This document shows, one piece after another, positions 6,001 to 12,000 of a stretch of DNA of 64,000 nucleotides (its first letter is position 1; every line of letters begins with the position of its first letter). Made by a program: the position numbers. Source of the stretch: a virus. The stretch lies in the IMG/VR virus record IMGVR_UViG_2814123225_000010, one strand, 5' to 3'.

Positions 6001-9000
6001 GAATGAGGAAAAAGATATTGCGAAGCCCTTAAATGATCTGGCTCCTCAGAAAAAGAGCAAGAAAAAGATATACCCAGAAGACAGCACCTACTTCAAAATG
6101 GCGCAGTATTTTTACAACCGGGTTTCTGCTGTTGCAGAAGCCGAAGGGTTGCGGCATTTAGTTTTGAAAGCAGACCTTCAAAAATGGGCGGACGAATTCC
6201 GGAAGATTGTGGAGATTGACAAGATAGATAAAAAGCTTGCAAAAGAAGTCATGGACTGGGTTACTGAGGATTCATTCTGGAAGACTAATATACTCAGTGC
6301 AAAGAAATTGAGAGATAAATTCAGCGACCTGGCTATAAAGATGCGATCTAATAAAGGTAGACAACAGCCAGTCAAAATGAGCAAAGATAAACAGCTAGAA
6401 ATAGCAAAAGAAGAAGCGTTCAGGGAGTGGATAGCAGATGGAAATGACCCAGCAGATTTCACTTTCCACTGAGGGAAATATCCTTGCGGAGCAATCTGTT
6501 CTCGGTGCCATTTTAATAGATTCAGGGCGTATTGATGACATCCGCTTTTTGGAGCCGCGAGATTTTAGCCAAGAACAACACGAGCTGATTTGGAAAGTGG
6601 CTCTTTATCTGGATGGCATCGATAAGCCCGTCAATGTACTCAGCGTGACAGAAATATTCACCCGGAGGAAAAGGCTCCACGAGATAGGCGGAGTAGAATA
6701 TCTCTCCCAGCTCGTAGCAGCTTGCGCCAGTACGTCAAAGGCAGCCGTTGTAAACTCTGCTCAGATTGTCAGGAAGAACGGTCATAGAAAGAGACTCATA
6801 GAGCTTTCTGATGAGATCAGAGAGGTGGCATCAGGAGAGCATGATTCAGATGAAGACATGTTTTCCGCCGTAGAAGACTTGGTGACGAATATCCGCCCTC
6901 AAGAGTCTGGGGAGATGAAATCCATGTCGGATACCCGAGAGGACTACCGGAAGCATCTGAAAAGTAAGGCAGAAAAGATTTATTCCGGCTTTAAACAGTT
7001 TGACGAATGGGCAATGCTCTGGCGGGGTTGGCTCTATATCCTTGCAGGGAGGCCTTCGGTCGGGAAAACAGCAAAGGCATTACAACTTGCCTACGGTGTT
7101 GCAAAAAACAATCCAGATGGTGGGTGTGTCCTCTTTTTCAGCCAAGAAATGGGTGCGAATGAACTCAAAGATCGCTTGGTTTCTAACATATCCGGAGTCA
7201 ATTACATCCGCTTGACTCAGAAAAAAGAGGAGCTTACTGACAAGGAATGGGAACGAGTGGAAAAAGCCCTTGATACGCTCGATAAGCTCCCCATCTATAT
7301 CCAAGACAAAGCATCAGTGACCATTGAGGAAGTTCAAGCAACGGTTCGCCGATTCAAAAAGAGGCATGGAAAAGTGGCGGCTGTGTTCGTGGACTATTTG
7401 CAGATTATGAAAATTTCACAGAAGAAAAACCAAAACAGAGCAGAAGCTATAGGAAACGTTACATCTGCGGCCAAACAAATGGCACGAAAATATAAATTTT
7501 GTTTTGTTATGCTCTCCCAAATGACCAGAGAGAGTGAAAAAAGAGAGGAACCAATGCTTTCCGATCTCAAGGAGTCAGGCTCAATCGAACAAGATGCCGA
7601 TGTCGTGGAATTCCTTTGGCATAACGGGGAGAAGGAAAACAATACAAAAGTTATCCGTTCCTACTTTGCCAAAGGTAGAAATGTCGGGGAGAACAGGTTT
7701 AAGTACAAGTTTGAGTGGTGGGTACAAAGATACGTGGAGCTTCCTAAAAAGGCGGAATGACCATGGGGAAAAGGATTGAAAACGAGGAGCAGTATCAGAA
7801 CTCCTTAAAGTGGCTTGTTTCCAAGAGCTTAGAGATTGAAGATCCATTGCTGGACGAAGAAACAAGAAAAAAGATGCTGCAAACCTACGACTTTGTAAGT
7901 CAGCGTGTCATAGAGTATCGGCGTGGTGAACTGGCAAAGATGTATCCGGGGCTACACGCTATATATAAACAGCTCGGCTGGAACTATGTTGGTTCGCCAG
8001 AGCCTGAACAGAAACAACCAGAAGCACCAAAGAAAAAGAAGAATTTGGATTTCTTCTTTGATGATTAGGGAGGGGACAATGAGAAAACTGAGCCTCTTCA
8101 GTGGAATAGGCGGGATAGATCTCGCCGCTAAATGGACAGGCATTGAAACAGTTGCTTTTTGTGAAAAAGAATCTTTCCCACAACAAGTATTACGCAAGCA
8201 TTGGCCTGACATTCCTATATATGACGATGTATGTGCACTCACACGGGAGGTTTTAGAACAAGATGGAATCATCACAAGGAATCGAACAATTGACCTTATT
8301 TCCGCGGGATACCCTTGCCAACCTTTCAGTAATGCCGGGAAGCGAAAAGGCAAGGAAGATGACCGTCACCTCTGGCCAGAAGTTGCTCGAATCTTACAGG
8401 AAATCCGGCCCAATTGGTTCCTTGGTGAGAATGTTGCTGGGCACATATCTCTGGGGCTCGATGACGTGTTATCTGACCTGGAAAGCATCGGTTACGACAC
8501 GCAAGCAATTATTATTCCGGCTTGTGCCGTCGGTGCCCCGCACAGAAGGGACAGAGTCTTCATTTTGGGGTACACCGAGTGCATCAGATGCAGTGGGAAG
8601 TCACGGGGGAGGACAAGGGAAGTCTCTTCGTACAGATATAGCAAATTGGAAAAAAGGCCTATGGGCTACACCGACCGCATCAGAGACTACAGCGAAGGAA
8701 AAAATCGAATTAACCGAAACAGGAAGACGAAAATGCTTGAACGGGAGCAGTCACAGTCTAGATTTGGCAACAATGGTGAAAATGTGGCCTACTCCAGCGG
8801 CACAGGATGCGAAGAATTGTACGCTTCCTCCTTCTCAGATAAGCAGGGATACAGTACCTGGAGCAATGCTCAGAGATGGACAGAAGGGACAACTAAATCC
8901 AGAGTGGGTGGAGTGCTTGATGGGCTTTCCGATTGGCTGGACAGATATAAATGGCCTGCAGGATTAGGACAAGAACAATACGATTGGGAACCTGCACGGA

Positions 9001-12000
9001 TAGAAACTAGCGTTCAGAACAGAGTTGGAAGGATAAAGGCTTTAGGGAATGCCGTGAATCCGGTTCAAGTTTATCCGATCTTGGCGGCAATAAAAGCAAT
9101 AAATGATCAAATATAAGGAGAGTAAAAAAATGAAAATAAAATATAGACTCAGCATCGGGTACCCAGGTGCCTGCCAAGAAGACGAAATTGAAATTGATGA
9201 TAAGGAATTGGAAGGACTCACACCAGAAGAGGCCGAGGGCAGAATCTGTGAGATTGTCGAGGAATATGTTCAGGATTTTATCTCTCTATCATGGGAGGAA
9301 GTAGAAGAGTAAAGGAGAGGGCACCAGCCTTGTTCTTTGAGATTTTGGTGAGATTTTTTTGACACTTTTTTGAGAGTTTGGATAGTGGCCAAAGTGCTAT
9401 CCTTTTCCTAGGAGGTACAGAGGATGAATAAATGTGAATATCCAGGATGCAAAAAGACAGCACAAGAAACGTTTGCACTGGTTCCCCTTTGCAAATGGCA
9501 CTGCGATGCCATCAAGGAAGAGACCCAGTTGTATTACGGCAACCTTAGCCCAAAATACAAAATCCATCGGCCTATGTATTGCAAGATTGCTAGGTTAATT
9601 CCATGGAGCCAGGTAAGCCGAAAAGAGGTGAATCTATGAGATTCGTGGGGATTGACCCTTCGACCAAGACCGGATTTGTTGCACTGGACCAGTTGGGAAA
9701 GGTGTCAAAAGCAAAGGAATTGACGGGCATTAATAAATCCGATTCTATCAGGATAATCACTTTGGTTGATGAGATTATGGATCACATTCAGCCAGGAGAC
9801 CGGGTATTTATAGAAGGATTTGCCCATGCAGCCAAGGGGAACTATGTGAGTCAAATGTTCGGAATCGGTTGGGGAATTAGAACGGCGCTTACACGGCGGA
9901 AAGTCCCATACACCGAAGTAACGCCTTCCCAACTCAAGAAGTTTGCAACTGGAAAAGGGAATGCCAAAAAAGAGGATTTAATCCTCCCTATATATCAGGA
10001 CTGGGGATTTGAAAACAGCAGCGATAATGTCAGAGACGCTTTCATCCTAGCTCATATAGCGTATGAAACACATCTTTTAAAAAATGGATTTTGCTCCGCT
10101 GTCGGTATTGATATTTACCCATACCGAAAAAAGATCATTAACGAGATTCTAAATTCTCCCGAAAAGAAAAAACGGAGGAAGGTGGCGAGATGAAAACCTG
10201 CCTCGAAGATTAAACGCCTCTATAACGTTGTATTTGCCCGTTTAAGAGGTTTTCTAGATGAAGTAATACAAATATTTATATTAACTTTATAACGCCTGTA
10301 TGAGGCGTATAAGAGCTCAAAACCACATTTAATTAAAGGAGAGATAAAACGATGTCTACTGAAATCAATGTTCTATTCAAATCCATGCAAAGAGATGATA
10401 AGAAAGAGGTTCTGAAATTTGAGCTAAAAGGCAATGAGAATGATGGCAATGCTCAAAAGCTTGTCGAGATGGCCGGAACCATTGTCATCTTCAACCTTCC
10501 GGGGCTAACGGAAGAGACCACGGCTGAATTCATGAATATCCAACGTGATAGCAAGAAAACCGTTATGAAGCTTGCTTTGAAAGGTGATAGTGAAGAGAAA
10601 GCACTGGAACTATATAAGCGCGCTGGACGGAATGTTCTGCTCATGCTAAAACCCTCTCAGATGAGCATAGAAGAATACTATGAGGAAGATGAAGGGTTGG
10701 AATATACGGTAAAAGCTGACGGAACCGTAGAATTGGATCAGGATCAAGTGACGATTGAGGACGTGGAAACGCCGGAAACCAAGGATACGGAAGACGCTCT
10801 GCCATTCTAATCATACTGCCCCGGGTTACCGGGGCTACCTCCATCAAAAGGAGTGAACCCATGAGCAGCAATTGTTTCTTACCGGAACTCGACAGAAAAA
10901 AGACGCAAGAAGCGCTTGAGGCTGAATTTGAGAAATACCGCATTTTCAAAACGGTCACCTTTGAAGAAAAAGAAGTGAACATCACATCCAGTTACCAAGA
11001 ACGGTTTCACGGTCAGACAAACGTAACCAGTGATTCAACGGCCAATGTGGCTATTTATAACATAGATACTCAGGCAGCCAGAAAAGCTTATATAGAGCGT
11101 ATAGATAGGGCTGTAGCAAGGCTTCATCCCAAGGAGCAGCTATTGATTCGCGAGCGATATCTGAAGCAGGATTATGTGTATGATTATGTCATCTATAACC
11201 AGGTTTTTAATCCTCCAATCAGTGAAAAAACATACGCAAAAATAAGGTGGAAAGCTTTTTACAAACTGGCCTTGGCTTTGAATGTGGCGGTTGAAAAAAA
11301 GTACGAGACCGAAAGTTAAATTTGCCTAGAATGCATCATAAGATAAATATTGGGGTGATCCAAGTGGGCAAAAAAAAGAAGGCTTTTACAATTAGGTATA
11401 TCCCCTGCGATGAGGCAGAAGGCAAACTTAATGAGATAGTAAAGGATTTGATTAAAGAAAAGATAAACAGCGCCTTGTCCCAGTATGATTCTATAGAATA
11501 TAATGATATTGAAAAATCAATTAGCCATTATATAACAGGGGTATGTAGTTATGAAAAACAAAATAGCAATTTATGTTCGGGTATCGACTACAAAAGAATC
11601 TCAAAAGGATAGCCCTGAGCACCAAAAGTGGGCTTGTATTGAACATTGTAAACAAATTGATTTAGATACTGCTGATTTAATAATTTATGAAGATCGTGAT
11701 ACAGGAACTTCTATTGTGGCTCGGCCTCAGATTCAAGAAATGATAAGTGATGCTCAAAAAGGATTGTTCAATACAATCCTTTTTTCTTCATTATCTAGGT
11801 TTTCCCGTGATGCACTTGACTCTATAAGTTTGAAACGAATATTTGTGAATGCTTTAGGTATTAGAGTGATCTCAATCGAAGATTTTTATGATTCCCAAAT
11901 TGAAGATAACGAAATGCTTTTTGGTATTGTATCAGTAGTGAATCAAAAATTAAGTGAACAGATTAGTGTTGCTTCTAAACGTGGTATCAAGCAATCCGCA

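Follow-up and report, generated by a model that had tools for sequence, protein, structure and literature searches.

A nested pair of reading frames in a Paenibacillus larvae prophage probably encodes a two-chain C5-cytosine DNA methyltransferase

A Paenibacillus larvae prophage, analysed here as a window of 64,000 nucleotides (nt; IMG/VR virus record IMGVR_UViG_2814123225_000010), carries on its plus strand an open reading frame (ORF) of 345 amino acids (aa) at 8079-9116, which we call alpha, and wholly within it a second ORF of 234 aa, beta, in the +1 frame at 8263-8967. We consider it highly probable that this single stretch gives rise to two proteins, which together make up an orphan C5-cytosine DNA methyltransferase resembling M.EcoHK31I, as a previous reading made from the DNA sequence by itself (hereafter the sequence-only reading) had proposed. 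The architecture is of a known type and both ORFs are already annotated in close relatives; the family as a whole is under-described, and a literature search found no description of the nested phage methyltransferase family.

Motifs and predicted structure of the alpha chain

Motifs I (FSGIGG, 8097-8114), IV (PCQPFS, 8313-8330), VI (ENV, 8427-8435), VIII (PHRRDRVF, 8538-8561) and X (GNAVNP, 9045-9062) were all located in the alpha frame, in agreement with the sequence-only reading, which had credited alpha with these five motifs and with no motif IX. Motifs I, IV (with PCQ), VI (ENV) and VIII lie in a Rossmann-type domain, as in members of the C5-cytosine DNA methyltransferases (PF00145), and the Pfam DNA_methylase profile of that family matched alpha residues 1-245 with an expectation value (E) of 1.4e-42. 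The match ends at profile position 228 of 324, so that motif IX was not found in the alpha frame. Alpha also matched the PHROGs family phrog_363 (E 7e-88), residues 13-173 of M.HhaI aligned to its residues 2-167 (E 5e-15), and a Foldseek search with its model returned C5-methyltransferases over the catalytic domain only (E about 1e-12 over about 170 columns).

The AlphaFold2 model of alpha was confident at residues 1-170 and 320-345. The first of these segments, the catalytic domain with motifs I, IV, VI and VIII (8079-8588), had a predicted local distance difference test score (pLDDT) mostly above 90. Residues 171-282 fell below 50 and had no secondary structure, so the middle of the chain, which had looked unstructured from its composition, is predicted to be disordered. 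The linker as a whole (residues 171-300, 8589-8978) is the alpha-frame reading of the beta recognition region; it is open and not conserved, rich in S, G, R, E and K, and contains 18% hydrophobic residues vs 34% in the alpha N-domain. The C-terminal segment with motif X (8979-9113) starts directly 3' of the beta stop and is marked out by conserved columns and by its pLDDT: W301, E304, P305, R307, R315, L322, G323, N324 and P328 were invariant or nearly so in 38 alpha sequences, and residues 330-345 scored 90 or higher. Two starts can be considered for alpha. The ATG at 8079, 5 nt 3' of GGAGG, fits the motif I spacing better than an in-frame ATG at 8061 (region 8061-8081), which is where annotation of phage Kiel007 places the start and which overlaps with the stop codon of the preceding ORF (GATGATTAG).

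The nested beta frame and its family

Beta opens two codons after a TAG and starts at ATG 8263, 12 nt downstream of a Shine-Dalgarno-like GGGAGG (8245-8250) that lies within the alpha coding sequence and has a predicted duplex energy of -11 kcal/mol, bearing out the earlier description of a 234-aa nested ORF with a plausible ribosome-binding site. Frame analysis was extended to 91 loci, of which 80 came from IMG/VR, picked by similarity to beta, and the others were the window itself, phage records and metagenome contigs. In 91 of 91, a start codon is located after the opening stop and before a conserved EQLTLF motif; a Shine-Dalgarno-like duplex with an energy of -5 kcal/mol or better is present ahead of it in 78%, vs 22% of control triplets inside alpha N-domains. 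The small ORF thus lies wholly inside the large gene, in another frame and with a start of its own.

Members of the beta family share a layout of a conserved N-domain of ~100 residues, then W-x-T-P-x-A-x-[DE] modules in varying number, and an invariant motif-IX-like end. In the window the N-domain (residues 8-105, 8284-8577) uses the same bases as alpha motifs IV-VIII. The variable region that follows (8566-8808) contains three modules (8566-8589, 8662-8685 and 8785-8808) and is presumed to serve in target recognition; module number and region length differ among beta homologues. Near the end of beta, at 8893-8943, lies the motif-IX-like segment LNPEWVECLMGFPIGWT, recognised by its pattern, its position and its invariant residues: L211, N212, P213, L219, P223, W226 and T227 were unchanged in 42 sequences, and the pattern L-x-P-x-x-x-E-x-L-M-G-F-P-x-x-W is invariant in the family.

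Profile scans of both frames, which the sequence-only reading had put forward as a check, gave a divided result, with alpha matched by PF00145 as described and beta matching nothing in Pfam or NCBIfam. Beta did match the PHROGs family phrog_1008, 'DNA methyltransferase' (E 8e-74). A beta profile found nothing among PDB sequences, and the ESM Atlas returned only viral 'hypothetical protein' clusters. Modelled alone, beta gave a low-confidence structure (mean pLDDT 62, predicted template modelling score 0.24).

Beta relatives are numerous. A word-based search recovered 779 homologues, nearly all without a Pfam domain, and a beta profile run against 1.84 billion cluster representatives matched 39,449 at E ≤ 1e-3 and 21,816 at E ≤ 1e-10, so that the family numbers ~39,000 when counted as clusters at 50% identity. 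Within IMG/VR, at least 582 of 598 candidate stretches encode a beta relative. Beta sat at +1 over alpha motifs IV-VIII in every one of the 91 loci where both matches were found. Lacticaseibacillus phages R23.9 and Lc-Nu, Salmonella phage SEN5 and Bacteroides phage BS-TP4 have both nested frames open, with beta-frame identities of 28-43% across these distant groups, and phage C72C1 has the nested layout too, as judged by frame offset only, from annotated coordinates. Close homologues tell the same story: both frames are 96-98% identical at the protein level to those of 34 P. larvae phage records (HB10c2, Rani, Kiel007 and Likha among them), and the beta frame, whose disruption in such relatives the sequence-only reading had named as the outcome that should count against it, is intact in 34 of 34.

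Chance does not explain the nested open frame. When alpha was permuted synonymously, the +1 frame was left open in 0 of 20,000 permutations (mean 7.4 stops), and in the reciprocal test, with beta permuted synonymously, the alpha frame was left open in 0 of 5,000. The +2 frame across the beta stretch of the window contains 22 stops. In phages SPR and KpCCP1, which have complete single-chain methyltransferases, the +1 frame over the equivalent codons is closed by 5-6 stops, as expected.

Which frame is selected where

Synonymous sites of alpha are suppressed only where beta overlaps them. Codons aligned across 81 alpha N-domains gave a third-position entropy of 1.72 bits upstream of the beta start vs 1.14 bits in the overlap (codons 69-165), and at conserved four-fold codons the corresponding values were 1.85 and 1.12 bits (Mann-Whitney p 0.009), the suppression that was to be expected if both frames were conserved. 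Stop counts over the same 81 loci show the same boundary: upstream of beta the +1 and +2 frames contain 268 and 382 stops, and in the overlap they contain 2 and 396, respectively.

Downstream of motif VIII the pattern changes. Among homologues, differences from the window in the variable region peak at beta codon position 3 (0.69 vs 0.51 and 0.46), and those in the motif IX segment do so more sharply (0.63 vs 0.24 and 0.18). Identity is likewise higher in the beta frame than in the alpha frame, both in the variable region (36% vs 18%) and in the motif IX segment (67% vs 33%). From the entropy and stop pattern on one side of motif VIII and the beta-phase substitutions on the other, we recognise a stretch of ~315 nt (8263-8577) that is constrained at the protein level in both frames, followed by 390 nt (8578-8967) in which beta is the selected frame and the alpha frame is just held open without stops. 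Of the about 700 bp of dual-coding DNA suggested earlier, only the ~315 nt are constrained in both proteins.

A natural control for the alpha frame came from the 85 loci with a complete set of matches. Both frames are open and motif X lies in the alpha frame in 79 of them (type A); three more (L009, L012 and L046; type B) have an alpha that ends right after motif VIII, with motif X in the beta frame, and the remaining three have a single stop in the alpha linker. Summed over all 85, the stretch from motif VIII to the end of motif IX contains no stop in the beta frame, 663 in the third frame and 52 in the alpha frame, 49 of which fall in the three type B loci. Over the linker region, there are no alpha-frame stops in the 79 type A loci and 13-18 in each of the three type B loci. 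This distribution argues that the alpha frame is held open by selection and closes once motif X moves to the other chain.

Divergent layouts among relatives

In the type B loci (L009 1302-2649; L012; L046), alpha is about 170 aa long and beta, at 328-384 aa, combines the N-domain, the modules, the motif-IX-like segment and, downstream of it, motif X in one frame, with an overlap of 320 nt between the two ORFs. Mycobacterium phage Blue7 (L099 1489-2488) and Streptomyces phage Vash (L100 1492-2548) have methyltransferases annotated as two overlapping genes, one with motifs I-VIII and the other combining P-T-P modules with a motif-IX-like segment and motif X. As annotated, the genes overlap by only 155 nt in Blue7 and 32 nt in Vash, although the +1 frame of Vash stays open over 331 codons.

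A related +1 ORF of 140-160 codons covers motifs IV-VIII of complete single-chain C5-methyltransferases in Streptococcus phages IPP48 and CHPC1148 and Clostridium phage phiCDHM19 (L102 1649-2071, L096 1652-2068 and L097 1607-2062), which carry motifs IX and X of their own. This ORF belongs to phrog_16143 ('DNA methyltransferase'), matches phrog_1008 weakly (E 0.006) and ends in an S-L-S-D-I-L-E...Y-F-L-S segment. Neither these Streptococcus and Clostridium ORFs nor the type B beta proteins had a match in Pfam or NCBIfam.

A further arrangement was seen in three metagenome contigs, L008 (about 835-850), L010 (about 1705-1715) and L011, where an (AG)5-6 run stands just upstream of motif IV. In these the N-terminus with motif I is in frame with beta, a TAG closes the alpha frame, and alpha could be made only if the ribosome shifted by -1 or the run lost one AG unit. 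As the layout is common to two lineages that are roughly three-quarters identical (by eye), it suggests frameshifting or repeat-length switching, not decay.

Weighing the alternatives

The idea that the nested frame does not code and is a side effect of alpha's sequence or of codon bias, or that the gene is decaying, has next to no credence with us. The missing Pfam family and the poor stand-alone model of beta are in its favour, but no synonymous permutation kept the frame open, substitutions follow the beta codon phase, the beta profile matches 39,449 cluster representatives, and every close phage record has the frame intact. A single polypeptide produced through two programmed frameshifts, +1 after motif VIII and -1 after motif IX, is also very improbable. 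Such shifts would restore the canonical order of motifs I-VIII, variable region, IX and X, and slippage-prone tracts do occur, both in the overlap (A6 at 8650-8655) and at the frame junction in L008 and L010 ((AG)5-6). However, some 100 conserved beta codons lie upstream of any shift site and depress synonymous variation in alpha, and beta has its own conserved start and Shine-Dalgarno sequence 300 nt upstream of the motif VIII boundary, whereas a frame reached by shifting would lack an independent start. No conserved slippery site was found at that boundary, the alpha frame remains open through the variable region in the type A loci, which frameshifting does not require, and alpha in type B ends right after motif VIII.

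A translated beta could instead be an accessory or regulatory protein, with alpha alone as the enzyme. We regard this as unlikely, although it draws support from the phrog_16143 ORFs nested in methyltransferases that already have motif IX, and from the failure of profile methods to assign motif IX to beta significantly. Set against it, alpha lacks motif IX and any folded region between motifs VIII and X, and the sole conserved and selected reading of the DNA between those motifs is that of beta. Type B beta proteins also carry motif X, which makes sense only if beta belongs to the enzyme.

Several observations weigh against a two-chain enzyme or limit how far the case for it reaches. The assignment of motif IX to beta, as made in the sequence-only reading, is based on pattern and position; Pfam is silent, and when the beta profile was compared by hhalign with five complete methyltransferases, motif IX fell on motif IX without significance (E 0.38). 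The spacing of 12 nt between the Shine-Dalgarno-like sequence and the beta ATG is long. Since related +1 ORFs sit in complete single-chain methyltransferases, the role of the beta N-domain may go beyond completing a split enzyme. Because the IMG/VR loci were picked by similarity to beta, there is some circularity in the number of open beta frames; the alpha-frame, codon-position and control tests are free of this bias. Finally, we infer from comparison that beta is translated, that the chains bind one another, that both are needed and what role each part plays.

A two-chain methyltransferase nonetheless remains our preferred explanation, and its working can be outlined as follows. The chains would be translated independently from one region of mRNA, with a separate ribosome-binding site within alpha serving the start of beta (ATG 8263, +1). 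Alpha would supply the domain for S-adenosylmethionine binding and catalysis (motifs I-VIII; PCQ holds the catalytic Cys), from which an unstructured tether of ~130 residues would lead to the motif X helix, packing back on the catalytic domain. The N-domain of beta, its three modules and the motif-IX-like segment would form a small DNA-recognition domain, in which the N-domain probably serves as the handle for binding alpha, while the W-x-T-P-x-A-x-[DE] modules probably recognise the target. The tether itself may have no sequence-specific role, with selection keeping its frame free of stops so that motif X stays attached. That target recognition could reside in beta had been raised before; the comparative evidence, with a variable region selected in the beta frame, makes it probable.

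A broader proposal, about which we are somewhat more doubtful than convinced, is that, in a very large clade of phage C5-methyltransferases (~39,000 clusters without a Pfam family), the nested +1 gene is a companion of ancient origin and almost obligatory. Its N-domain might then have a function of its own, given that a related ORF persists in complete single-chain enzymes, and the alpha middle, of 65-283 residues, might be a 'passenger-frame' tether selected only for the absence of stops. Indels that swap the tails of the two frames could, on this proposal, move recognition modules between chains.

Genome context, variants and annotation

The methyltransferase gene lies in what we interpret, from its gene neighbours, as the prophage replication module: these are a DnaB helicase, an unknown ORF, DUF7167, another unknown ORF and RuvC. 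No gene for a cognate endonuclease was found among these neighbours, so the adjacent endonuclease that marks a type II restriction-modification system is missing, and the gene content agrees with the earlier view of the enzyme as an orphan.

Two variants of the pair were observed in P. larvae. One (L092 1495-2013, nearest genome G001; phage Lily records H37 and H75) has a beta of 163-172 aa, in which the N-domain is 51-76% identical and the recognition part is shorter and different, which suggests that recognition regions have been exchanged on a conserved scaffold; G001 carries only this Lily-like form, which differs from the gene pair of the window. The other concerns the A6 run in the overlap (8650-8655, plus strand), which sequence comparison showed to be A5 in two P. 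larvae assemblies (GCA_031924185.1 and GCA_031924125.1; L093 and L094, at about position 872; protein P0015, with 10 member sequences). Because both frames are open, the change from A6 to A5 should swap the tails of alpha and beta and truncate neither. Alpha in the A5 form ends with the last two modules and motif IX of beta, and beta, to judge by the frames, would run into the alpha linker and motif X. Real variation, a phase switch and a mistake in assembling the homopolymer are all possible sources of the A5 form.

The expectation that standard annotation would miss the second chain proved wrong for close relatives. In most of the 34 P. larvae records two overlapping genes are annotated at this position, both named methyltransferase or one of them named hypothetical protein (KIEL007_52 and KIEL007_53 in Kiel007, for example), and PHROGs has a family for each chain. 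A paper on 48 genomes lists the P. larvae gene pair without comment. Gene pairs of the Kiel007 type (phrog_363 with phrog_1008) resemble that of the window in identity and genomic context, with no substantive difference. In the more distant phages R23.9 and Lc-Nu, beta is not annotated. A preprint on a two-subunit methyltransferase of an Stx phage proved unrelated, as it concerns adjacent genes and an enzyme first annotated as an adenine methyltransferase.

Implications

Reviews still treat two-chain C5-methyltransferases as rare exceptions and name M.AquI and M.EcoHK31I only, yet the tens of thousands of sequence clusters in this family indicate that the nested design is probably a common phage strategy. 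Its second subunit is usually unnamed or missing in annotation, and expression of such genes from a single ORF may yield an inactive enzyme or one of altered specificity. For studies of evolution, the pair offers a clean and testable case of long dual coding on the same strand, with one doubly constrained stretch and one in which a frame seems to be kept open only as a tether. Phages of P. larvae are candidates for the control of foulbrood, and an orphan methyltransferase, if truly active, would bear on how they evade host restriction.

Comparison with known methyltransferases

The C5-methyltransferases that have been characterised are monomers, except for M.AquI and M.EcoHK31I (PMC3404938). 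M.EcoHK31I, from E. coli HK31 and specific for YGGCCR, has an alpha chain bearing motifs I-VIII as well as X, plus a beta chain with motif IX that is nested in another frame, and requires both (Lee, Kam and Shaw 1995, as described in PMC2836561 and PMC3404938), as the sequence-only reading had stated. The layout in the window, compared by published description, is alike: the large chain has motifs I-VIII and X without IX, and the small chain is nested within it. Chain sizes are also similar, at 309 and 176 aa in M.EcoHK31I, 345 and 234 aa in the window and about 283 and 201 aa in phage R23.9.

Loss of 42 N-terminal residues of the M.EcoHK31I beta chain weakens association, and its Met17 and Met26 serve as alternative starts (PMC2836561). 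Internal Met codons nine residues apart occur in the beta of the window too, as Met24 and Met33, which fall on the family-conserved V-M-P-G-S-E and K-M-T positions; this spacing is a lead towards homology with M.EcoHK31I, not a test of it. The two systems differ in that M.EcoHK31I is part of a restriction-modification system, whereas the gene in the window appears to be an orphan, and in the placement of the target-recognition domain. The papers assign that domain to alpha in M.EcoHK31I; in the window the middle of alpha is unconserved and predicted to be disordered, and the selected variable region is in beta, so that a recognition domain on the large chain was not found.

M.AquI (CYCGRG) consists of two polypeptides from separate genes (PMC3404938). 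It resembles the enzyme proposed for the window as a two-chain C5-methyltransferase split within the variable region. Its small chain carries motifs IX and X and gene nesting is not described for it, whereas the window and the other type A loci keep motif X on alpha; the M.AquI split of motifs does recur in the type B loci, but with their 320-nt overlap. The monomeric enzymes M.HhaI and M.HaeIII (PF00145) have a catalytic domain homologous to alpha and, unlike the pair in the window, hold the recognition domain and motif IX in frame on a single chain.

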